Below, in pieces: positions 35,810 through 50,824 of a stretch of 64,000 nt of DNA. The position numbers and the translations under genes were made by a program. Within the stretch, counting starts at the first letter, position 1, and each line of letters starts with the position of its first letter. This DNA comes from Dehalococcoidia bacterium (lineage in GTDB: Bacteria > Chloroflexota > Dehalococcoidia > Plut-88900), in contig OZ240219.1 in the NCBI GenBank assembly GCA_965197645.1, positions 2,816,001 to 2,880,000 of the forward strand. The letters are read 5' to 3'. The notes under the pieces are model-generated. The model was not told where the DNA came from, searched no databases, and saw nothing but the letters and a program-made list of their open reading frames with translations.

Positions 35810-35838
35810 TTGACACACCCTGATAGCTGTGATACGAT
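35810..35838 (+). promoter_or_regulatory. Sigma70-type promoter for the transposase, -35 inside the left TIR
   Basis: TTGACA-17 nt-TACGAT. Confidence 0.6.
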
Positions 35839-35867
35839 TTCCTTGTAGTCAAAACGAGGTATCACAG

Positions 35868-36866
35868 ATGCAATCAGAGAAGCTAACCTTTCAAGCGGTG
35901 TTGCGGTGGGATGAGGAACAGTGCAGGCATTTTCTAGCCTCAATGCGGTGGCCTCAAGGTATCCGTTGCCCCAAGTGCGGCGCTACAGACGAACCTTACA
36001 CCATCACCCGCAAAAAGCCAGGCAAAAACAAGGTAACATCCCTCTACAAGTGCCGGGCTTGTAAGCGCCAGTTCAGCGCCACCCTCGGAACCATCTTTGA
36101 AGACAGCCACATTCCCCTCAACAAGTGGCTGGCGGCCTTATTCCTGATGGTGTCCAGCAAGAAGGGCATCAGTGCCCACCAGCTTTACCGCCTTCTTGAT
36201 TTGGGTTCCTACCGTACCGGGTGGTTCATGGCCCATCGTATACGGGAAGCTATGCGGGAGAAGGGATTGCTTGAACCTCTGTCCGGCGATGTAGAGGCCG
36301 ACGAAACGTACTTGCACCCTCGCCGCCGGCGTGGAAGCCCTGGATACCATGAGCGTGTCCAGGATGAGATTGAGATGGGCATTCGCCCGAAGCCCAGGCG
36401 GAAAGGCCCCTACGAGGGCAAGGCGGTTGTGTTCGGCATGCAAGAGCGTGATGCGAATGTTAGGACGGTGCATGTGCCCGACGCAACTCGCCAGACACTG
36501 CACCCGATAATCCGGCGGTGGATCGACTCGTTAAACACACGGCTGATTACGGACCAGCACCCGGCCTATCGTTTAGCGAAACGGTTCGTGAAGCACGAAA
36601 CCATCAACCACGAAACCGAGTACGTCCGGGGCGATGTGCACACGCAGAATATCGACAACTACTGGTCGATCTTCAAGAGGGGCATCTACGGGGTGTTCCA
36701 CCACATTGGGGAGGACTACCTACCCAACTACCTCAGCGAGTTTGACTTTAGGCGGAACCGGCGGAAGATATCGGACGTGGAGCGGTTCGTTAGTCTGATG
36801 GGCCAGCTTCAGGGCCGTCTTCTGTGGTACTGCAAGACTCCCCAGCCGGCGAATCCTTACGCGTAG
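35868..36866 (+). CDS. IS1595 family transposase (Zn ribbon + DDE_Tnp_IS1595)
   Basis: RWPQGIRCPKC, YKCRACKRQFS, GTIFEDSHIPL, KKGISAHQL, VEADETY, ITD, HTQNIDNYW, YLSEFDFR; GAGGT RBS. Confidence 0.95.
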   Translation: MQSEKLTFQAVLRWDEEQCRHFLASMRWPQGIRCPKCGATDEPYTITRKKPGKNKVTSLYKCRACKRQFSATLGTIFEDSHIPLNKWLAALFLMVSSKKGISAHQLYRLLDLGSYRTGWFMAHRIREAMREKGLLEPLSGDVEADETYLHPRRRRGSPGYHERVQDEIEMGIRPKPRRKGPYEGKAVVFGMQERDANVRTVHVPDATRQTLHPIIRRWIDSLNTRLITDQHPAYRLAKRFVKHETINHETEYVRGDVHTQNIDNYWSIFKRGIYGVFHHIGEDYLPNYLSEFDFRRNRRKISDVERFVSLMGQLQGRLLWYCKTPQPANPYA

Positions 36867-37073: not shown

Positions 37074-37164
37074 GGAAGGAGACCTAAGCTGGTGCTTAAT
37101 GCGGGCTTAAAACCTGTAGGGGCCGTGCCCACAGCGCGGTCAGGTTCGATTCCCTCTCCTTCCG
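37074..37164 (+). tRNA. Non-canonical tRNA-Sec-like 9/3 'allo-tRNA', anticodon UAA
   Basis: 9-bp acceptor GGAAGGAGA/TCTCCTTCC, discriminator G; D-stem TAAGC/GCTTA with TGGT loop; anticodon loop CTTAAAA; 8-bp variable arm; GGTTCGATTCC T-arm; no encoded CCA. Confidence 0.8.
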
Positions 37165-38762: not shown

Positions 38763-40070
38763 ATGAAGCTGGAGATGGGCGTCTTCAACGTAACCCAGGC
38801 GGAGTTCTCCGATAGGACCGAGTTCCACGACGGAGTCCTTTCAATCAACAAGGCCGAGCTTCTCCAGCACCTCTCGAAGGACTCTCCGTTTCAGAGGGTC
38901 GAACTCGACCTCGTACGGCCCGGCGAAGATGCCCGCATCGTCCACGCCCTTGACATCGCCGAGCCCCGGGTCAAGGTCTCCGGCCCCGGTCAGGTCTTCG
39001 CTGGCATGCTGGGACCTCCCAGCCAGGCAGGCGAAGGTCGTACCCATCGGCTGGCCGGCTTCTCCGTTGTTGGCGCCGCCGAACCGTTTCCCGGAGAGGA
39101 CGTCTGGTACGCCCGGGAAGCGGTGATCGATATGTCCGGCCCGGGCGCCGACTACTCTCTCTTCTCGCAGACGATAAACCTGGTGCTCTCCTTTGTACCT
39201 CACGATGGACCGACTGCCAACGAGCTGGAGGAGAGGCTCAACTACGAGGTGGACTACAAGACGGGCCAGGCCCAGGAGTACACTCTCCAGTCCCGATTGC
39301 TGGGCCTCAAAGCCGCCGGCTACCTCGCTGAGGCCGTCCGCAATATCGAGCCACCCGATATCGATATCTATGAGCTTTCGCCCGTGGAAGACAACCTACC
39401 CGGAATAGTCTACCTGGTTCAAAACCTGGGCGGTGTGATCTACGGAGCAAACGGCGCTCGGAGCAACAATGCCGTTCTGCTCCACCCCAACGAGCTAATG
39501 GACGGCGCAGTAGTCAACGGCAAGTGGTGGAACCACGCCTGCATGAGAGAGGCTACCTACCTCTTCCAGAACGATGCCGTAGTCAGCACTTTGTACGGCG
39601 CCCACGGCAAGACGCTCAACTTCCTCGGCGTAATCTTCTTCGACGGGGGCCAGTACGAGCTGGGGGACAAGGACCGGGAGAGCAGCGAGGTAGTAAAGAT
39701 CTCACGCATGTTGGGCGCCGATGGGGCCATCATTTCCCCCCTCAGCGCAGGACACCAGGCCGTCGGCTACATGATGATTTGCCAAAAGTGTGAGAACGCG
39801 GGAATCAGCACCGTCCTGGGAATAGGCCAGATGACCAACAACAAAGGCGACCCCGGCTTCACAACCTGGGTCCCCGAGGCCGACGCCATCATCATTCCAG
39901 GAGACGACGAGGAGATCCTTTCCCTTCCTGCGGTGAAGAGGGTGATCGGCGGGACCACGATAATGAACTCGTCCCAGGACGCGTCGGGGCCGATTGAGAT
40001 ACAATTGCGATCGATATACGGCGCCACCGGACCGATAGCGCCGGGCAGGTTAAGCGGCCGGTTGTACTAG
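38763..40070 (+). CDS. Glycine/sarcosine/betaine reductase component B alpha/beta-type subunit (GrdE/GrdG/GrdI-like)
   Basis: MKLEMG, LVRPGEDARI...D..EPRVK, GEGRTH.L.G, VIDMSGPGADYSLFSQT.NLV, HPNELMDGAVV, LGADGAII. Confidence 0.88.
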   Translation: MKLEMGVFNVTQAEFSDRTEFHDGVLSINKAELLQHLSKDSPFQRVELDLVRPGEDARIVHALDIAEPRVKVSGPGQVFAGMLGPPSQAGEGRTHRLAGFSVVGAAEPFPGEDVWYAREAVIDMSGPGADYSLFSQTINLVLSFVPHDGPTANELEERLNYEVDYKTGQAQEYTLQSRLLGLKAAGYLAEAVRNIEPPDIDIYELSPVEDNLPGIVYLVQNLGGVIYGANGARSNNAVLLHPNELMDGAVVNGKWWNHACMREATYLFQNDAVVSTLYGAHGKTLNFLGVIFFDGGQYELGDKDRESSEVVKISRMLGADGAIISPLSAGHQAVGYMMICQKCENAGISTVLGIGQMTNNKGDPGFTTWVPEADAIIIPGDDEEILSLPAVKRVIGGTTIMNSSQDASGPIEIQLRSIYGATGPIAPGRLSGRLY

Positions 40071-40086: not shown

Positions 40087-41409
40087 ATGGCCAAGCTGCG
40101 CATAGTCCACTATCTCAACCAGTTCTTCGCCGGTGTTGGGGGCGAAGAGGAGGCGAACACGCCTCCAGGCGTCAAGGCCGGCCCCGTCGGCCCGGCACAG
40201 GCTCTCCACAACATTCTCTCCACCGACGGCGCCGGCGAGATTGTCGCCACCGTCTACTGCGGAGACAACTACATCACCGAGCACGGCGAAGAGGCGCTGG
40301 AACAGCTACTGGGCCTCATAAAGCCTCTCGCGGCCGACGTGGTCGTGGCCGGGCCCTCCTTCGGTTCCGGGCGATACGGCCTGGCCTGCGGTCAGGTCTG
40401 CGCCGCGGTCAACGAGCAGCTGGATATCCCGGTGGTGTCCGGAATGCACAAGGACAGTCCGGGCGCCCAGGAGTACCGCACCTCAGCCTACATCGCCTCC
40501 ACCACCGAGACCGCCATCGGCATGTCCGATGCCATCGCCACCATGGCGAGGCTGACAACCAAGCTGGGCCGCGGCCAGGAACTGGGCCCCGCCGACGAGG
40601 AGGGCTACGTTCCTACTGGACGGGTCAAGAACGAGTTCTCGGACCGCACCATCGCCACCCGGCTGGTGGACATGCTCTTGAAGAAGGTCAAAGGCGAACC
40701 CTTCGAGACCGAGTGGCCTCTCCCGGCCATGGAGAAGATTACCCCCTCCCCTGCCTTGGCCGACCTGTCCAACGCCAAGATCGCCCTCGTCACCGAAGGC
40801 GGCGTGGTGCCCAAGGGCAACCCGGACAAGATACCCGGTGGCTGGGCCGAGCACTGGGCCCGGTACAACATCAGCGAGACCGAGAGGCTAAACCCCGAGA
40901 ACTGGCAGTCGGTACACGGCGGTTTCGACACCACCGACGTCAACCGGGATCCGGACAGGGTCGTACCCCTGGATGCTCTTCGGGACCTGGAGAAGGAAAA
41001 GGCCGTCGGCAAGGTCCACGACTACGTGTATACCACCGTCGGGAACCTGGGCTACGTATCCAACATGCGGAAGTTCGGCAAGGAGATAGCCAAGGAGCTG
41101 TTGGATGCCAACGTGGATGGGGTTATTCTCACCGGCACCTGAGGCACCGGCACCCGCAGCGGAGCTGCGATGGCCAAGGAGCTGGAGAGAGCCGGCCTCC
41201 CCACGGCATTCATCACCTCGATGGTGCCTCTGGCCCAGGGAATGGGCGCCAATCGGATAGTTCAGGGCAAGGCCGTCACCCACACCACGGGCGATCCCTC
41301 CCTGGTTCCCGAAGGAGAAAAGGCCTTTCGCAAGGGTCTGGTGGAAAAGGCCCTCAAGGCGCTCCAGACCGAGACCAAGGAGCAGGAGGTGTTCTGGGCG
41401 GAGGGGTAG
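40087..41409 (+). CDS. Glycine/betaine/sarcosine/D-proline reductase family selenoprotein B (GrdB-like), Sec at TGA 41140-41142
   Basis: VHYLNQFFAGVGGEE, GRYGLACG, VTEGGVVPKGNPD; ORF continues in frame through TGA as ILTGT-U-GTGTRSGAAMAKELERAG; hairpin follows. Confidence 0.9.
41143..41175 (+). promoter_or_regulatory. Candidate bacterial SECIS of the GrdB-like gene
   Basis: CGCAGC-GGA-GCTGCG hairpin; G-starting loop begins 19 nt after UGA. Confidence 0.65.
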
Positions 41410-41449
41410 AGACTAGGGCGACGCCTAAAACGTCACCACCCGGCTGCTA

Positions 41450-41715
41450 GGGCCTGTTCACACTCTCGCTTCCAATGTCATTCCGAAACGGAGGGCAGCG
41501 TAGTGAGGAATCTATGGCCCATGTTCCCAGACCATTTTGCGTATCGTGTGTAGGCGGAACCGTTGGACCAGATGCGTAATCCCGAGATTATTAGGGTCCG
41601 CCGACCCTCCGACGGAATCGGGCCGTGATTCCCGACAACCCTCCTGGATTCCTCACTGCGTTCGGAATGACATCTAAGCTCCACAGATGACTCGGGCCTT
41701 AATGTGAAGGGGCCC
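41450..41715. mobile_element. MITE-like element with 15-bp imperfect TIRs, TA duplication and internal REP-like inverted repeats
   Basis: TA|GGGCCTGTTCACACT ... AATGTGAAGGGGCCC|TA; internal ATGTCATTCCGAA (41475)/TTCGGAATGACAT (41673) and AGTGAGGAATCT/GGATTCCTCACT. Confidence 0.7.
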
Positions 41716-42800
41716 TATTCGAACATGATGACGCTTCGGGCGACGTGGGCCTCCCTCATGTCTTCGAAGGCCCTGTTCACGTCCTCCAGCTTGATCTTCT
41801 TGGTCACCATCTCGTCCAGCCTCAGCCGGCCCTGGAGGTAGAGCTCTATGTACTGGGGCATATCCACCCGGAAGGAGTTGGAGCCCATGTTGCTACCCTG
41901 GACCACCTTTTGAGTCAGCAGCATGGGCCCATCTATCTGGATCTTGGTCCCTTCGGGGATCATCCCGATGATGGTGGCCACGCCGCCGGTGTCCAGCATG
42001 TCGTAGGCCTGCTCAGCGGTCTCCGCCAGCCCTATGGCCTCGAAGGAGTAGTCCACGCCGCGTCCGCCGGTGATGCTCTTGATCTTGTCGACTACGCCGC
42101 CCGTCGAAGCGTCTACGACGTCCGTCGCACCCAGCTCCCGGGCTAGGCCCAGCTTAGTCTCCACGCCATCGACGGCGATGATCTGCGCCGCACCGGCGAT
42201 TCTGGCCCCCTGGATGGCGCTCATTCCCACGCCTCCACACCCGATCACCGCCACCGAGCTTCCCGGCTTCACCCGAGCGGTGCGCATTGCAGCCCCGACT
42301 CCGGTGGTCACGCCGCATCCGATGAGAGCCAGCACCTCCATGGGCACGTCGTCCCGCACCTTGACGGCGGCGTTTTCGTGCACCAGCATCTTCTCGGCGA
42401 AGGAGGAGAGATGCAGGAACTGATGGACCTTCTCGCCGCCCTTGCTGATGCGAGGGGTCTCGTTTCGCTTTCTGGTGAGGTCCTCCTGGCGGCAGTTGAA
42501 CGGTTGCCCGGCGAGGCACTTATCGCAGGCGCCACAGAAGACCGAGAGGCAGGTGATGGCCCTGTCTCCCGGCTGGAAGTAGGTCACCAGGTCTCCGACC
42601 GCCTCGATGGTGCCGGCTGCCTCGTGCCCCAGAATAGTGGGCATGGGATACCTGTATTTCCCTTCGACGAAGTGAAGATCGCTGTGTCAGACGCCGCTGG
42701 CGCCGGTGCGGATCACCACCTCCCGAGGTCCGGGCTTGTCTATCTCCACGTCCTCTATGGTCAAGGGAGCGTTGACCTCCCTCAAGACTGCTGCTTTCAT
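41715..42800 (-). CDS. Zn-dependent alcohol dehydrogenase (MDR), candidate selenoprotein, U38
   Basis: MKAAVLREVNAPL...RTGASGV-TGA(42687-42689)-HSDLHFVEGKY...LGHE; 361 aa with read-through; GGAG RBS before ATG 42800. Confidence 0.85.
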
Positions 42801-42809
42801 CGCCTGCTC

Positions 42810-43895
42810 CTAGTCAAATACTATGATGCTTCGAGCCAGGTGCCCGTCCCGAAGGTCGTCCATCCCTTCGTTGATTTGGTCCAGCTTGATCCGCTTGGAG
42901 ATGATCTCGTCCAGCTTCAAGCGGCCCTGCCGGTAAAGCTCCATGTACCGGGGCATGTCCACCCGGAACCGGTTGGAGCCCATGTTGCTTCCCTGGATGC
43001 GCCGTCCATCGAGGAACGATGGTCCGTCCAGCTCCACCTTGGTACCCTCGGGGATCATGCCGATGACCGTGGCCGTCCCGCCCCTGTCCAGCATATCGAA
43101 GGCCTGCTGGGCCGTCTCAGCCTTGCCGATGGCCTCGAAGGAGTAGTCGACGCCGCGACCTCCCGTCAGGCTCTTCACCCTCTCCACCACATCGCCTCCC
43201 GATGCGTCTATAACGTCGGTGGCGCCCACCCTCTGGGCGTAGGCCAGCTTGTCCTCAATGGCGTCGATGGCGATGACACGCGCCGCGCCGCCGATGATCG
43301 CTCCGTTGACCGCGCTGAGGCCCACGCCTCCGCAGCCGATGACCGCCACGGTGCTTCCGGGCTCCACCCGGGCCGTGTTCAGGGCCGCTCCGGTGCCGGT
43401 TGTGGTGCCGCAACCGATCAGCGCCTGCACCTCTATGGGCACGTCCTCGTCCACCTTCACACCGGCGTTCTCATGGACCAGCATGTACTCGGCAAAGGAG
43501 GAAAGGCTCATCGCCTGGTGGACCTTCTCGCCACCCTTGTGCAGCCGGGGTTGTTCGCCCGGCCCTCGGTCAAGCCCCACCTGGCGGCAGTTCACCATCT
43601 CCCCTTGCAGGCACTTGTCGCAGGTGCCGCAGAACACCGAGAGGCAGGTAATCACCCGGTCTCCCGGCTGGAAGTAGGTCACCTGCTCACCCACCGCTTC
43701 GATGGTTCCCGCCGATTCGTGGCCCAGAATCGTAGGTGTGTCGTGTGTGTACAGACCGTCGACGTAGTGGAGGTCGCTGTGGCATACCCCTGTTGCGCCG
43801 GTCTTGATCAGGACCTCCCTTGGCCCGGGGTCGCTGACGTCAACGTCTTCAATCTCCAGCAACTCGAAGGGTTTATACATTACTGCGGCTTTCAT
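42810..43895 (-). CDS. Zn-dependent alcohol dehydrogenase (MDR), Cys38 paralog
   Basis: GVCHSD, LGHE, CGTCDKC...C, LIGCG, GCGGVG. Confidence 0.95.
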   Translation of the reverse strand: MKAAVMYKPFELLEIEDVDVSDPGPREVLIKTGATGVCHSDLHYVDGLYTHDTPTILGHESAGTIEAVGEQVTYFQPGDRVITCLSVFCGTCDKCLQGEMVNCRQVGLDRGPGEQPRLHKGGEKVHQAMSLSSFAEYMLVHENAGVKVDEDVPIEVQALIGCGTTTGTGAALNTARVEPGSTVAVIGCGGVGLSAVNGAIIGGAARVIAIDAIEDKLAYAQRVGATDVIDASGGDVVERVKSLTGGRGVDYSFEAIGKAETAQQAFDMLDRGGTATVIGMIPEGTKVELDGPSFLDGRRIQGSNMGSNRFRVDMPRYMELYRQGRLKLDEIISKRIKLDQINEGMDDLRDGHLARSIIVFD

Positions 43896-43932
43896 ATCGA
43901 TCCTTTCCGGTAAGACCCTAGATGTTCATCCT

Positions 43933-45018
43933 TTAATCGAACACTATGACGCTTCGGGCTACGTGCCCCTCCTTCATGTCCTCAAAGGCCTGGTTCACGT
44001 CCTCCAGCTTGATCGTTTTAGTCACCAGCTCGTTCAGCTTCAGCCGGCCCTGAAGATACAGCTCAACGTACTGGGGCATGTGAACGCGGAACCGGTTGGA
44101 GCCCATGTTGCTACCCTGTATCTTCTTCTCGCTCAACAGAGAGGGCCCGTCGATATGGATGTCGGTGCCCTCGGGAATCATGCCGATGACCGTGGCTACG
44201 CCACCGTTGTCCAGCATGTTGTAGCACTGCTCCGCCGTCTCTTTGAGTCCGATAGCCTCGAAGGAGTAATCGACGCCGCGTCCACCTGTTATCTGCTTGA
44301 CCTTCTCCACTACTCCGCCGCCGGATGCGTCGATGACGTCGGTCGCCCCGAGCTGTTGGGCCAGTGCCAGTTTCGTCTCCACCGGATCGATTGCGATGAT
44401 CTGGGCCGCTCCGGCGATGGCGGCGCCCTGCAACGCGCTGAGCCCCACGCCACCCAGCCCCACCACTGCCACGGTGCTCCCGGGGCTTACCTTGGCGGTG
44501 TTCAACGCCGCCCCGACTCCCGTCGTCACCCCACAGCCGATAAGCGCGATCTCCTCTATGGGCACGTCGTCCCGGATTTTCACCGTCGCGTTTTCATGCA
44601 CCAGCATGTACTCGGCGAAGGTGGAAAGGCTGGAAAAGTGGAACACGGGAGTACCGCGAAGGCTGAGCCTGGGCGGTTCGTCGGGGCCCCGTTCCAGCCC
44701 TTCCCGCCGGCACAGGGCCGGATTGCCGCTGAGGCACTTATCACAGGCGCCGCAGAACACCGAGAGACAGGAGATTACGCGGTCGCCGGGCTTCACGTAG
44801 GTGACCAGATCCCCTACCGCTTCAACCGTTCCCGCCGCTTCGTCACCCAGGACCGTTGGAGTGGGACACTTGTACAATCCTTCCAGGAAGTGAAGATTGC
44901 TGTGTCAGACGCCGCTGGCCCCAGTCCGAATCAGCACCTCTCTGGGCCCCGGGTTATCGAAGTCGACATCCTCTATCGAAAGGGGGGTGTGCGCCTCGTG
45001 CATTACGGCAGCCTTCAT
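43933..45018 (-). CDS. Zn-dependent alcohol dehydrogenase (MDR), candidate selenoprotein U38 with N41/D59
   Basis: MKAAVMHEAHTPL...RTGASGV-TGA(44905-44907)-HSNLHFLEGLY...LGDE; 361 aa with read-through; AGGAGG RBS. Confidence 0.83.
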
Positions 45019-45119
45019 GAGTCATCTCCTCCTGAAACTCTGAGATAGCCAAACGAGACCTTCGGCAAAGACCGAGGGTACTGGCGAGAGTGTATTACCA
45101 TTCTCAAGGCCAGTCAACA

Positions 45120-45490
45120 AGCACGCACACGAGCGGATGGCGGGTGACGTGCGGCTTGATCCGCATCCCATAAAGCTCGCCCCACCCTCCCCGGCGTTGG
45201 TTTTCCCAACCACCCACCCTAGGAAGGTTATGATTGGTTGGGGGAACATCCCCTAGGCCCTCTACCAGAGTCAGGGCGAGGCCCTGCACCCATAACATGA
45301 GAGAAGAGAGGGCAACGTCCCGCACCTATGGCAGGTAGAAGATAGTGCTGGCCTATGCCAAAGAGGAAAGGGGTTCGGGGTAGAGTCTTAGCAGGCCGAT
45401 GAAACACGTGGTGTGCAGAGGGGCGACGCCCCTTGTTCTTCCCCTTCCTGATCAGAAAAGGGGCAAAGGATATGGTCGCGAAAGCCGTGA
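45120..45490. repeat. Cluster of degenerate intergenic repeat modules
   Basis: Modules similar to 2929-3075, 8262-8355 and 51100-51230. Confidence 0.5.
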
Positions 45491-45555: not shown

Positions 45556-46008
45556 CTACTCGGTGGTAACCGAGTCCTGGGACTGGTCCAGGGCAGCCTT
45601 GAGGGTATGCCAGGCCAGGCTGGCGCATTTCACCCGGGCGGGAAACTCCCGCACGCCGCTCAGTATCGCCAGCTTCCCCAGCTCGTCCATCGATTCCATG
45701 GGGTCGGTTTCTCCGGTGACGGTCTTGTGAAAGACGTCGAACAGCCGGGCCACCTCCTCCTCGTCGGTCCCCTTCACCGCGTCGGTCATCATCGAGGCGC
45801 AGGCCTTGGAAATAGCGCACCCGCCGCCTTCGAACCCGATGTCCTCGATGGTGCCGTCCTTCACCTTTATGTCAATGAATATCTCGTCTCCGCACAGGGG
45901 ATTGTAGCCCTCGGCGTGCCTGTTGGCGTCATCGAGACGCCGGAAGTTCCTCGGGCGCCGATTGTGGTCCAGCACCGTTTGCTGGTAAAGCTCTCCCAGG
46001 TCCGACAT
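45556..46008 (-). CDS. sufU: SUF system NifU-like sulfur transfer protein
   Basis: ELYQQTVLDH, NPLCGD, GCAISKA, RVKCA. Confidence 0.95.
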   Translation of the reverse strand: MSDLGELYQQTVLDHNRRPRNFRRLDDANRHAEGYNPLCGDEIFIDIKVKDGTIEDIGFEGGGCAISKACASMMTDAVKGTDEEEVARLFDVFHKTVTGETDPMESMDELGKLAILSGVREFPARVKCASLAWHTLKAALDQSQDSVTTE

Positions 46009-47279
46009 TAGCCAAACACCTCATTCACCTTGTCCAGCCCCTTCACCAGCGCGTCCACGTCCTCCTTGGTATTGTAGAAGGCGAAGGACGCTCTGACCGT
46101 CGCGGGGACCCCGAAGTGGGCCATTACCGGTTGCGCGCAGTGGTGGCCGGTGCGTATGGCAATCCCCTCGTAGTCCAGGATGCTCCCCACATCGTGGGCG
46201 TGTACGTCTCCGCATAAGAATGATACGACACTGGCCTTCTGCGACGCCGTGCCCACTACCCGCAGCCCGTCCATCGTAGAAAGCGACTCGGTGGCGTAGG
46301 ACAGCAGCTCCTGCTCGTAGCCCGCTATCTCCTGCCTACCGATATGCTCCACGTACTCCAGGGCCGCTCCCAGGCCTATCGCCCCTGCTACGTTGGGCGT
46401 GCCCGCCTCGAACCTGTGAGGTAAATCGTTGTAGGTGGTCTTCTCGAAGGTGACGGAGCGGATCATATCTCCGCCGGCCTGATAGGGGGCCATAGATCCC
46501 AGCAACTCTTCCTTGCCGTAGAGTATCCCCATACCCATCGGCCCGAAGACCTTGTGGCTGGAGAAGACGTAGAAGTCGCAGTCCAACTCCCGAACGTCCA
46601 CCGGGCCGTGGGGCACGGCCTGGGCCCCGTCTATCAGCACCGGCGCCCCGATGCTGTGGGCCATCTCGATAATGGATCTAACCGGGTTGACCGTCCCCAG
46701 TGCGTTGGAGACGTGGGCCATAGAGACCAGCTTTGTCCGCGGCCCGAGGAGCCGTTCGTACTCCTCCAGAACCAGTTCGCCGTCGTCATTGATGGGGACC
46801 ACTCTCAGAACGGCCCCCTTTTCCTCGCACAGCAGCTGCCAGGGCACGATATTGGAGTGGTGCTCCATCTCCGAGATGATCACCTCGTCTCCTGCGCTCA
46901 GGATATTCCTTCCCAGGCTGCTGGCCACCAGGTTGATCCCTTCCGTGGTGCCCTTGGTGAATACTATCTCCCTGACGCTTGCCGCGTTTACAAACCCCCG
47001 GACGATCTCCCGCGACCCTTCGAAGGCTGCCGTGGCCCGTTCGCTCAGCTGGTGCAACCCCCGGTGGACGTTGGAGTTGTAGCAGCCGTAGTAGTCCGTG
47101 ACGGCATCGATGACCCGCTGGGGTTTCTGGCTGGTGGCGGCGTTGTCCAGGTAGACCAGCGGTTTCCCATGCACCTTCTGGTGCAACGCAGGAAACTCCG
47201 CTCGAAGCCTCTTTACTTCCGCCTCGGTCAGAGAGGCGACGGCGGTCCGCGGAGCACCCGCCCCGTCGGGGCTACCCAT
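46008..47279 (-). CDS. sufS: Cysteine desulfurase SufS
   Basis: YLDNAATSQKP, EHHSNIVPW, SSHK, EAGTP, RTGHHCA. Confidence 0.96.
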   Translation of the reverse strand: MGSPDGAGAPRTAVASLTEAEVKRLRAEFPALHQKVHGKPLVYLDNAATSQKPQRVIDAVTDYYGCYNSNVHRGLHQLSERATAAFEGSREIVRGFVNAASVREIVFTKGTTEGINLVASSLGRNILSAGDEVIISEMEHHSNIVPWQLLCEEKGAVLRVVPINDDGELVLEEYERLLGPRTKLVSMAHVSNALGTVNPVRSIIEMAHSIGAPVLIDGAQAVPHGPVDVRELDCDFYVFSSHKVFGPMGMGILYGKEELLGSMAPYQAGGDMIRSVTFEKTTYNDLPHRFEAGTPNVAGAIGLGAALEYVEHIGRQEIAGYEQELLSYATESLSTMDGLRVVGTASQKASVVSFLCGDVHAHDVGSILDYEGIAIRTGHHCAQPVMAHFGVPATVRASFAFYNTKEDVDALVKGLDKVNEVFG

Positions 47280-48591
47280 TCGCCCCACCCTGTTTCTCGG
47301 CCACTACGTCCTCTATCAGCCCCCTGAGCTCTTGCATCTCTATTGTATCGACTACCTCTTGAGCGAACCCTCGGACCAGGAACCGTCGAGCATCTTCGGC
47401 GCTTACCCCCCGGCTGTTCAGGTAGAATACTGCCTCGTCGTCGAGCTGCCCCACTGTCGCTCCGTGAGAGCACTTGAGGTCGTCGGCGAATATCTCCAGC
47501 TGGGGCTTGGTGTTCACCTCTGCCCGCTCTGCCAACAGCAGGTTGCGATTGGTCTGGTTGGAGTCAATCTGGCGGGTGCCCTGCCGGGCCACGACCTTGC
47601 CATTGAACACCGCCTTGGACCGTCCGTCCAGTATCCCTTTGTACAGCTGCCGGCTGCGGGTGAAAGAAGCGGCGTGGTCGACGCTGGTGTGGTTATCGAT
47701 GTGCTGCCCATCGCTGGTGATGAACAGACCGTTGAGTGCGCACTCGCTCCCTTCGCCTTCCATGTCTACGTTGAGATCGTTCCGGCCCAACTTGGCGCCC
47801 ACGTCCAGCGAGAAGACGGAGGCCTGGCTGTCACGGGCCTGGTGTATCTGGATTGTGCCGATGTGGAAGGCTTCGACTCCCTCGCGCTGTAGTTTGAAGT
47901 GCTCCAGCCGGGCGTTCTCGCCGACAACCGCTTCGGTCACCGCGTTAGTGAACGAAGGCCCATCCCCGATGTAGCTTTCGATAATGGTGGCCTTGCTGCC
48001 CCTCTCCAGAACGATCAGGTTCCGTGGATAGGCGACCACCGCCCCCTCGGCGGAGGTGACAAAAATCAGGTGAACGGGGTTGTACAGCTCTACTCCGGCC
48101 GGAACGTGAACGTAGCCGCCGTCCTCCATGAATGCGGAGTTGAGCCCAATGAACCCGTTGCTCTCCAGGTCTGCGTAGCGGCCAAGATGCTTTTCAACTG
48201 TCTCGGAATCGACGGCCTCCGCGAGGCTGCCCACCGAGTCGTGAGCGATGGAAGAGAGCTCCTCATTGAAGACGCCGTTCAGGAAGACGAGGCTGCTCCA
48301 ACCGGGTTTGTCAACGGTCAACCCGTCGATTTCGGCTTCCGACAGGGCAACGCCGGTGCAATCCCGGGCATGGGCATACCGGGTTCGGCCTATCGGCGCT
48401 ACGTTGGTGTACTTCCAGTCTTCGTGCCGAGTCGTGGGAAATCCGTGGGCCTCGAATCGGGCGAATCCCTTGGCCCGAAACCGGCTGAGCCACTCCGGGT
48501 CTGCTGTATCGGAGCTGCTGCGGAATGACTCGAACTGGGACGTATAGGCCTCGTGTGCCCGTTGAACCTGTACCGTATCGCTTCCTGCCAT
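47272..48591 (-). CDS. sufD: Fe-S cluster assembly protein SufD
   Basis: EDWKYT, SRQLYKG, KPQLEIFADDLKCSHGAT. Confidence 0.95.
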   Translation of the reverse strand: MAGSDTVQVQRAHEAYTSQFESFRSSSDTADPEWLSRFRAKGFARFEAHGFPTTRHEDWKYTNVAPIGRTRYAHARDCTGVALSEAEIDGLTVDKPGWSSLVFLNGVFNEELSSIAHDSVGSLAEAVDSETVEKHLGRYADLESNGFIGLNSAFMEDGGYVHVPAGVELYNPVHLIFVTSAEGAVVAYPRNLIVLERGSKATIIESYIGDGPSFTNAVTEAVVGENARLEHFKLQREGVEAFHIGTIQIHQARDSQASVFSLDVGAKLGRNDLNVDMEGEGSECALNGLFITSDGQHIDNHTSVDHAASFTRSRQLYKGILDGRSKAVFNGKVVARQGTRQIDSNQTNRNLLLAERAEVNTKPQLEIFADDLKCSHGATVGQLDDEAVFYLNSRGVSAEDARRFLVRGFAQEVVDTIEMQELRGLIEDVVAEKQGGANG

Positions 48592-48607
48592 CTCCAGTCG
48601 CCGGTCG

Positions 48608-49372
48608 TTACCCCGCCTTGACCTGCTCCCTGACCCAATCGTAGCCGTGCTCCTCCAGGTGCAGGGCGAGGTCCCTGCCGCCGGACTCCACTATCCGGCC
48701 TTCCAGCAGAACGTGGACGAAGTCCGGGGTGATGTAGTTGAGAATACGCTGATAGTGGGTGATCAGCAGGATGGCGTTGGACGGGGTGCGAAGCATGTTC
48801 ACACCGTTGGCCACGGTCTTCAGCGCATCGATATCCAGCCCCGAGTCCGTCTCGTCGAGGACCGCCAGGGTTGGTTCCAACACCGCCATCTGCAGTATCT
48901 CGTTGCGCTTTTTTTCGCCTCCGGAGAAGCCGTCGTTCACCGCCCGGTTGACGTAGCTGGAGTCCATGTCCACCACTTTCAGCTTCTCCTTGAGGACCCT
49001 GTAGAACTCCACCGCGTCCAGCTCCTCCAGCCCCTGGGCCTGCCGCAGGGAGTTGTACGCCGTCTTCATGAACTCGTTGTTGGTCACGCCAGGGATCTCA
49101 AGGGGGTACTGGAAGGCCATGAAGAGCCCTTCCCGGGCCCTCTCCTCAGGCAGCATCTCCAGCAGGTCCCTGCCCTTGTAGGCCACCTCGCCTTCCGTAA
49201 CGTGATAGGCGAAGTGTCCCGCCAGCACCCGGGCCAGCGTGCTCTTGCCCGAGCCGTTGGGTCCCATGACCGCGTGCGCTTCGCCCTCGTTGATCTGAAG
49301 GTCTATGCCCTTGAGTATCTCTACGTCTTCGACGCCTGCGTGCAGATTTCTGATATCCAGGATGGTCGACAT
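48608..49372 (-). CDS. sufC: Fe-S cluster assembly ATPase SufC
   Basis: MGPNGSGKST, FSGGEKKRNE, LDETDSGLD, ITHY. Confidence 0.97.
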   Translation of the reverse strand: MSTILDIRNLHAGVEDVEILKGIDLQINEGEAHAVMGPNGSGKSTLARVLAGHFAYHVTEGEVAYKGRDLLEMLPEERAREGLFMAFQYPLEIPGVTNNEFMKTAYNSLRQAQGLEELDAVEFYRVLKEKLKVVDMDSSYVNRAVNDGFSGGEKKRNEILQMAVLEPTLAVLDETDSGLDIDALKTVANGVNMLRTPSNAILLITHYQRILNYITPDFVHVLLEGRIVESGGRDLALHLEEHGYDWVREQVKAG

Positions 49373-49378
49373 GGCTAT

Positions 49379-50824
<1,446 letters not shown>

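Follow-up and report, generated by a model that had tools for sequence, protein, structure and literature searches.

In the class I enzymes of the medium-chain dehydrogenase/reductase (MDR) alcohol dehydrogenases (ADHs), Cys46, His67 and Cys174 are the ligands of the catalytic zinc, and the residue equivalent to Asp49 normally holds the zinc-ligand His67-equivalent. Exchange of a classical ligand is known in the ADH of the Thermoanaerobacter brockii / Clostridium beijerinckii type, an MDR enzyme in which Asp replaces the ligand equivalent to Cys174. In known selenoproteins, selenocysteine (Sec) acts mostly in redox chemistry or as a nucleophile, or it binds a redox metal (Ni, Mo, W); in [NiFeSe] as against [NiFe] hydrogenases, and in Sec- as against Cys-formate dehydrogenases, Sec replaces a metal-ligating Cys, and Cys paralogs or orthologs are found in the same or related genomes. 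The stretch considered here is a 64-kb window of a Dehalococcoidia bacterium (assembly GCA_965197645.1, positions 2,816,001 to 2,880,000 of OZ240219.1), taken from a single 3.21-Mb contig (genome G000), and positions below are coordinates of that window. On its minus strand, at 41715-45018, lie three MDR ADH genes. At codon 38, which is aligned with Cys46, the outer two (copies A and C) carry TGA and the middle one (copy B) encodes Cys. As judged from sequence, genes A and C are translated across this UGA, and in both of them genuine Sec decoding of UGA38 is probable, a reading held here with fairly good confidence.

The initial annotation had described three head-to-tail paralogs of 1086 nt with MKAAV starts, a TGA at codon 38 of the outer copies beside a Cys38 in the middle one, divergence of the outer copies without other damage, and an open reading frame (ORF) track that cuts both outer genes, and each of these points was confirmed. 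The ORF list and re-translation with TGA read as U give 361 codons and a stop for every copy, each with a purine-rich Shine-Dalgarno-like stretch before its start, and codon reading places both TGA codons at the positions first reported. TGA38 is the sole in-frame stop of copies A and C, the rest of the 361 codons being open. The proteins are 74% identical between A and C and 68% identical for both A/B and B/C. The ORF list, made with table 11, shortens copy A to 314 aa and copy C to 309 aa, and copy A is stored in the protein database as a 314-residue fragment. A fourth ADH paralog, at G000:C1:399678-400760 on the plus strand, has Cys38 and is 70-72% identical to copies C and A.

Copy C contains the Pfam domains ADH_N (E=4e-23) and ADH_zinc_N (E=3e-30), and residues 2-360 of copy A match class I and class III ADHs of the PDB at E ~1e-75. 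In alignment with human and horse class I ADH, which is free of gaps in this region, residues 38, 41, 59 and 60 correspond to Cys46, Asp49, His67 and Glu68, and Cys162 sits in the IGCG motif of Cys174; the alignment thus upholds the earlier proposal that the TGA falls on the first catalytic-zinc Cys, the ligand role itself being textbook knowledge. The four structural-zinc cysteines (Cys89, 92, 95 and 103) are kept in A, B and C and in two TGA-bearing genes of a sister genus described below (G002a and G002b). The nearest NCBIfam models are TIGR02818, TIGR03451 and TIGR03989 (class III ADH, mycothiol-dependent formaldehyde dehydrogenase and NDMA-dependent ADH), but the best scores of A, B, C and G002a, about 282-321 bits, fall under all the curated cut-offs of 440-544, so that the genes are related to these families rather than members of them. 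With the described class III-like MDR zinc ADHs (S-(hydroxymethyl)glutathione/mycothiol dehydrogenase and NDMA-dependent ADH; PDB 1hdy, 7aas) they share ADH_N and ADH_zinc_N, a length of ~360 residues, the four-Cys structural-zinc loop and the GxGGVG nucleotide-binding motif. They differ from them at residue 38, where Cys gives way to TGA in A and C, and, in copy A and three other TGA forms, at His67 and Asp49, which become Asp and Asn.

The same codon is TGA in five genes from three sources: copies A and C of the window, the two paralogs of G002 (a sister genus in the same family as G000), and metagenome contig L061. These five genes are only 62-76% identical to each other and none has any other lesion; the alignment at codon 38 holds them together with 33 Cys forms. 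With TGA at codon 38 in three more genes, from two sources besides the window, the shared TGA is not a matter of chance. Both G002 genes are open over 360 codons, with U38 in GVUHSNLHF, and SelA is present in G002. When 61 relatives were searched with read-through of stops, TGA-bearing matches occurred only in G000 (two) and G002 (two), and in a search of 401 genomes of the class, in which 123 genomes had a match at E<=1e-110, they were again confined to G000 and G002 among the matches listed (40 weaker ones stand outside these). The degenerate pattern GV-TGA-H[ST][DN]LH[FY] was found in five stretches across 185,579 species genomes, comprising two G002-type genes in a Dehalococcoidia metagenome-assembled genome (MAG), two stretches in Saprospiraceae that were set aside as chance occurrences in the wrong frame, and one in Pseudoclavibacter (L057, 2210-2236, minus strand), where TGA stands at the catalytic Cys (ACGVUHTDLHY) of an MDR ADH that is intact in other respects. 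SelA was looked for in that Pseudoclavibacter genome and not found, and its TGA is probably a plain nonsense mutation, an example of one that serves as negative control. In a metagenome collection, one of seven pattern stretches was real, namely L061, a 1-kb contig that reads MKAAV...GVUHSNLHY...LGDEAAG. Database protein P0122 (79% identity to copy A) is a candidate sixth case and probably a TGA gene: its sequence begins at residue 53, Asp59 is present, and its contig of 31,082 bp matches in size the one given for the full-length paralog P0024.

Pairing of TGA with Cys at position 38, and retention of TGA in orthologs, had been set beforehand as tests, and both states were found: TGA in G002 and L061, and Cys in the Sec-competent genus g4. 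In all nine g4 genomes a Cys-Asp-His gene is in tandem with a Cys-Asn-Asp gene (residues 38, 41 and 59), the latter sharing 75% identity with copy A, and SelA is present in the three g4 genomes tested (3/3). By sequence comparison, the g4 genes make up Sec/Cys ortholog pairs of the kind sought in selenoprotein searches. A quick LG+G4 tree was computed from 38 sequences. It joins copy A to L061 and the Cys-Asn-Asp genes of g4 (Shimodaira-Hasegawa-like approximate likelihood ratio test, SH-aLRT, 97), sets the G002 pair apart as a separate clade (SH-aLRT 99), and makes copy C sister to the Cys-Asp-His clade (SH-aLRT 88). At least four changes of the TGA state are needed on this tree, and monophyly of the five TGA forms was rejected by the approximately unbiased (AU) test (p=0.02); together these results argue against a single gain followed by simple inheritance, and for repeated exchange of Sec and Cys.

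Selection on the two sides of the TGA was evaluated by pairwise Nei-Gojobori (NG86) estimates of non-synonymous (dN) and synonymous (dS) divergence, among the TGA forms and between these and Cys forms. Upstream of the TGA, over 37 codons, dN is 0.15-0.50, and downstream of it 0.18-0.32; dS is saturated (0.8 up to not computable), and dN/dS, where computable, is 0.06-0.27 before and 0.09-0.27 after. Relaxed selection had been named at the outset as a finding that would speak against Sec, and what was found is purifying selection on both sides (0.06-0.27); ratios so far below 1 indicate that both halves are kept as protein in one frame. Strain variation was followed in contigs of >=90% identity from two other DNA studies (X3, X5) and two RNA libraries (X6, X7), with counts that hold among the differences listed (145 further rows lie outside them). 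In copy C, 20 of 21 strain differences are synonymous and at third positions; 15 of 16 are synonymous in copy B, the Cys gene, and two of two in copy A. The listed differences spare both TGA codons. An RNA-library contig (X6 record 24, 44899-45040) spans the TGA of copy A, and another (X7 record 27, 42486-42794) that of copy C, each with 0 differences. For X5 record 11, 17 of 19 differences are listed and none is at a TGA; the statement that the TGA is unchanged in X3 and X5 rests on listed differences, and two contigs over copy A, X3 record 6 and X5 record 16, are ~95% identical to it. The initial annotation had asked whether reads might show TGC or TGT instead, and in the independent DNA and RNA-library contigs TGA is unchanged among the differences listed. 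Depth and cover of contigs were not used for ranking expression.

The machinery for Sec, whose absence had likewise been named as telling against the proposal, is present in full, with selA, selB, selC and selD all found: in G000, SelA scores 449 bits, SelB 347 bits and SelD 380 bits, all above cut-offs, and the tRNA-Sec scores 66 bits with RF01852, has anticodon tca by ARAGORN and discriminator base G73. It is the only tca (UGA-reading) tRNA among the 50 that ARAGORN found in G000, and no second opal suppressor was detected among them. General reassignment of the codon is excluded, since 384 out of 1348 long high-scoring ORFs end in TGA as a normal stop. A genome scan for coding sequence on both sides of a TGA gave about 20 further in-frame-TGA genes with selenoprotein-like motifs, with candidates for GrdA, three GrdB-like, SelD (the SelD gene itself having one in-frame TGA), four UGSC-type, DsbA-like, ArsC-like, AhpD-like, Prx-like and SelW-like proteins; of these names, the GrdB of the window (by Pfam) and SelD were profile-tested, and the others are a motif reading against Table 1 of PMC9312934. 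From this inventory genome G000 looks selenoprotein-rich, and the main text of PMC13326102 places Dehalococcoidia MAGs among the most selenoprotein-rich bacteria.

Just 3' of the TGA, all five TGA forms have a small hairpin with a G(G/U)N loop at +22 to +26 (start at +22 or +24), which would be the selenocysteine insertion sequence (SECIS). In copy C a 4-bp stem closes a GUC triloop at +22..+24, with 3 bp more past an A.G mismatch; G002a and G002b read ACUU(C/U)CU-GGUA-GGGAAGU, and L061 reads CUACCU-GGA-AGGUAG. The best hairpin having G in the first two loop bases has an energy of -8.6 kcal/mol in G002a, -6.9 in L061, -5.7 in G002b, -3.3 in copy C and -2.2 in copy A, and the stems are of 6-7 bp in the first three genes and of 4 bp in A and C. 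The GrdB-like and other selenoprotein genes of G000 share with the ADHs the machinery and a UGA at a Cys-type position; however, many of the recognised genes have stems of 6-8 bp (-9 to -17 kcal/mol), as against 4 bp in A and C, with triloops GGA, GGC, GUA, GUC or GUG at +21 to +31. In the GrdB and AhpD-like genes the triloop is at +21 to +24, compared with +22 to +26 in the ADHs. Defined as a G[GU]N(N) loop starting at +20..+32 on at least 4 bp, the hairpin motif occurs in 5/5 TGA forms, 2/33 Cys homologs and 8/20 recognised selenoprotein genes, with a background frequency of 7.4% among the control Cys codons (5951) and 4.2% among true TGA stops (548). An Rfam scan of 40900-45200 with E up to 10 gave no match to a SECIS family, the GrdB TGA included; as even that bona fide TGA goes without a match, the negative is uninformative. 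The main text of PMC13326102 gives 87.4% of BSepDB entries as having a canonical SECIS, so that some accepted selenoprotein genes are without one. Two measures were tried and dropped: plain minimum free energy (MFE) over the 45-60 nt after the codon does not discriminate (z=-0.84 for copy A, z=+0.95 for copy C), and the fractions of synonymous recodings with at least the native stem, Fisher-combined by hand to p~0.05, were not used, the genes being non-independent.

Sec stands well ahead of any other candidate for the inserted residue because the codon lies on a Cys, the genome has full machinery with a single UGA-reading tRNA and many Cys-aligned UGA genes, and a suitable loop stands at the right distance. 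Several observations weigh against Sec decoding in A and C, most of them on the side of the hairpins. The 20 recognised selenoprotein genes of G000 have a median of -10.1 kcal/mol, with 19 of the 20 at -8.2 or lower, and A and C are far weaker; in a sample of 400 in-frame Cys codons taken at random, 76% equal or surpass A in folding, and 72% equal or surpass C. The MFE of the TGA forms (-6.9 to -10.5) is within the range of the Cys forms (-3.9 to -17.1). The motif was defined post hoc, with the data already seen. The hairpin of copy C is fixed by the peptide H-F-V-E-G, 100% of synonymous recodings retaining the motif, and an identical hairpin is found in the Cys homolog out_L033; for the other four TGA forms the recoding fractions (0.38, 0.21, 0.19, 0.11) are marginal. 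All TGA forms come from a single bacterial family, and the five genes therefore do not amount to five independent lineages. The RNA-library contigs are a hint of transcription only, and such libraries may contain DNA.

The weakness of the hairpins in A and C bears on two rival explanations, each of which is judged unlikely. UGA might be read through without Sec, with a near-cognate or suppressor tRNA inserting Cys or Trp, possibly at low level. A UGA followed by C is a leaky stop context, which counts in favor of this, as does the natural occurrence of SelC*-type tRNA-Cys with UCA anticodons described in PMC5389517. Yet the lone tca tRNA of the 50 in G000 has the shape of tRNA-Sec and G73, with no second opal suppressor beside it, the UGA falls exactly on the Cys position in a genome that has the whole Sec machinery and in which UGA is aligned with Cys in ~20 other genes, and every one of the five TGA forms has its G(G/U)N-loop hairpin at the distance used by the GrdB and AhpD-like genes. 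Alternatively, and with a similarly small chance of being right, an ancestral Sec family could still be active in G002 and L061 while the SECIS of A and C is no longer effective and both genes are becoming pseudogenes, which would account for 6-7 bp (-5.7 to -8.6 kcal/mol) in the former and 4 bp (-2.2, -3.3) in the latter. Decay of this kind sits poorly with the 20 synonymous to 1 non-synonymous listed variants of copy C, a pattern like that of the Cys copy B, with the intact frames and starts of A and C preceded by ribosome-binding sites, and with terminal branches (A 0.15, C 0.20) that are not longer than those of the Cys paralogs B (0.15) and P7 (0.12) and of G002a and G002b (0.18, 0.21).

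Least probable of all, and largely refuted, is that A and C are plain nonsense pseudogenes or products of sequencing or assembly error. A single base change does turn TGC or TGT into TGA, one chance case was seen in Pseudoclavibacter (GV-TGA-HTD, with SelA not found there), and standard pipelines call such genes as truncated, as in the ORF list and in database entry P0009. Against this, an identical TGA codon recurs in five genes of 62-76% identity with no other lesion, dN/dS is far below 1 on either side of it, and it is present in two difference-free RNA-library contigs and unchanged among the differences listed for the two other DNA studies. The same TGA codon at such identity, with intact frames, low dN/dS and mostly synonymous variants, is more than pseudogenes or errors can explain.

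Comparison of the residues around the codon brought out a feature that had been missed before. Apart from copy C, which keeps HSD...GHE, the TGA forms (copy A, L061 and both genes of G002; four of five) read HSN...GDE, having Asp at the His67-equivalent and Asn at the Asp49-equivalent. By sequence position, the candidate catalytic ligands are U38, H59 and C162 in copy C, and U38, D59 and C162, without His, in copy A. The Asn41/Asp59 subtype, a rare one among MDR enzymes, occurs either with a Sec-type TGA or with Cys at position 38. Among the best 119 database homologs, 109 are C/D/H at the three positions, three are C/N/D and two are shortened forms with Asp59, so that Asp59 occurs in 5/119. 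Four database homologs (P0065, P0069, P0101, P0102) read GVCRSD, with Arg instead of His beside the catalytic Cys. Copy C, with the usual His59 and Cys162, has the classical ligand set if U is counted as Cys. The earlier label of Zn-ADH is not secure for copy A, in which the zinc ligand His59 has become Asp and Asp41 has become Asn. Both copy A and the T. brockii / C. beijerinckii type have a carboxylate for a classical ligand, but here Asp is at the His67-equivalent and is coupled to Asp49Asn.

It is proposed that UGA38 would be decoded by the organism's own SelB/tRNA-Sec system, and that this system is recruited through the small hairpin just 3' of the UGA, whose G(G/U)N loop lies around +22 to +26. 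A full-length, 361-residue NAD(P)-dependent MDR alcohol/aldehyde dehydrogenase, class III-like, would result, its catalytic metal bound by a selenolate instead of the Cys46-equivalent thiolate. For copy C the remaining ligands would be the usual His59 and Cys162, and in copy A and its closest relatives the site would be remodelled to Sec/Cys38, Asp59 and Cys162, with Asn41 replacing the His-holding Asp; copy B and the fourth paralog are Cys isoforms. That Sec rather than another residue is inserted, and that it binds zinc, is inferred, as is a benefit from Sec, for example a metal ligand resistant to irreversible oxidation or a tuned Lewis acidity. By likeness to the Sec/Cys hydrogenase pairs, copy B is plausible as a Cys back-up for low selenium. 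The Sec/Cys pairs of hydrogenases and formate dehydrogenases have redox-active Ni, Mo or W, whereas in the present ADHs the metal would be Lewis-acid zinc in a hydride-transfer enzyme. The whole of this proposal, that is, selenolate-ligated catalytic zinc in an MDR ADH in two designs (Sec-His-Cys, and a new Sec/Cys-Asp-Cys in which Asn stands for Asp49), at least four Sec/Cys switches in one Dehalococcoidia family, an unusually small SECIS, and Sec as ligand of a Lewis-acid metal and not as redox residue, has about an even chance of being correct.

Beyond the ADH genes, the adjacent GrdB-like gene, which had been taken as a sign of Sec use in this genome, was verified by its Pfam match and its one in-frame TGA, and has a strong SECIS (CGCAGC-GGA-GCUGCG, loop at +22). 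The GrdE-like and GrdB-like pair is convergent with the ADH cluster, and the fourth ADH paralog is in the same arrangement, convergent with a third GrdB-like gene (401042-402370, minus strand; locus L054) that has an in-frame TGA. A conserved gene neighbourhood was considered and rejected, for the neighbours of the G002 TGA genes are an amidohydrolase, an amidase and a DAO-type oxidoreductase, GrdB is absent there, and no common operon partner was found; given these different neighbours, no claim of a pathway is made. Directly upstream of copy A and on its strand is a SUF iron-sulfur cluster assembly operon, comprising two SufB/D-like genes, an ABC ATPase, a class V aminotransferase (SufS-like) and a NifU-like gene. 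The window also has a tRNA-Sec-like gene just downstream of an IS1595-family transposase gene. It scores 50.8 bits with RF01852 (gathering 47), was not called by ARAGORN, and has a 9-bp acceptor stem, a 3-bp T stem, a long variable arm and a fold z=-3.5. Its anticodon loop is CUUAAAA, and the anticodon UAA, which reads the Leu codon UUA, rules it out as decoder of UGA; its features agree with those of the (9/3) allo-tRNAs that PMC5389517 describes with Leu anticodons. The positions of the features within the window are given in Table 1.

Table 1. Positions of the ADH genes, their TGA codons and candidate hairpins, and neighbouring features, in coordinates of the 64-kb window.
Feature	Position	Strand	Remarks
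ADH copy A	43933..45018	-	361 codons, U38 (TGA), subtype HSN/LGDE (Asn41, Asp59), Cys162, Cys89/92/95/103
In-frame TGA of copy A, codon 38	44905..44907	-	aligned with Cys46 of class I ADH
Asn41/Asp59 of copy A	44896-44898 (residue 41), 44842-44844 (residue 59)	-	subtype also at L051, L052, L061 and g4 loci L022-L031
Candidate SECIS region, copy A	44874..44900	-	8-bp stem GCAAUCUU/AAGGAUUGU (+8..+34), 11-nt loop, or minimal hairpin
Minimal hairpin, copy A	44888..44878	-	UCCU-GGA-AGGA (+20..+30), -2.2 kcal/mol, weak
ADH copy B	42810..43895	-	361 codons, Cys38 (TGC, GVC38HSD), standard HSD/LGHE subtype
ADH copy C	41715..42800	-	361 codons, U38 (TGA), standard HSD/LGHE subtype (Asp41, His59, Cys162)
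In-frame TGA of copy C, codon 38	42687..42689	-	GV-TGA-HS context
Candidate SECIS, copy C	42658..42676	-	UUC(A)CUUC-GUC-GAAG(G)GAA, -3.3 kcal/mol, weak
GrdB-like selenoprotein gene	40087..41409	+	Pfam GRDB E=1e-136; single in-frame TGA 41143..41145
Glycine/sarcosine/betaine reductase component B subunit-like (GrdE-like) gene	38763..40070	+	upstream of GrdB-like gene
SUF operon	45556-50824	-	
tRNA-Sec-like gene	37074-37163	+	
IS1595-family transposase gene	35829-36866		

Neither the enzyme fold nor the way in which Sec is inserted is new; the novelty lies in their combination, together with the Asn41/Asp59 site. The initial annotation knew of no characterised selenoprotein family of this kind, and a full-text literature search likewise found no paper describing an MDR/ADH selenoprotein family; a prior database listing, for example in BSepDB, is possible. 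No MDR/ADH entry is among the 16 experimentally verified and 71 predicted entries, for families and subfamilies, in the 2022 table of prokaryotic selenoproteins given as a 'complete list' (PMC9312934), and no ADH is among the nine new selenoprotein families of PMC12013277 as that paper lists them. In the main text of PMC13326102, to which supplements and BSepDB entries are additional, neither 'alcohol dehydrogenase' nor 'zinc' appears.

In summary, comparison of the three ADH genes with their relatives points to a selenium enzyme, most likely with Sec at residue 38, that would if true be of a kind not yet described, and Sec at the catalytic zinc of an MDR ADH would extend selenium biochemistry to a Lewis-acid site. 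Annotation pipelines truncate such genes. The weak hairpins may mark the lower limit of the SECIS that bacterial SelB accepts. As MDR ADHs are among the best-understood enzyme classes, and as C and B stand side by side as natural Sec/Cys paralogs, the pair would provide a clean test of what is gained from Sec in activity, in the pKa of zinc-bound water or alcohol, and in the resistance of the ligand to oxidation.

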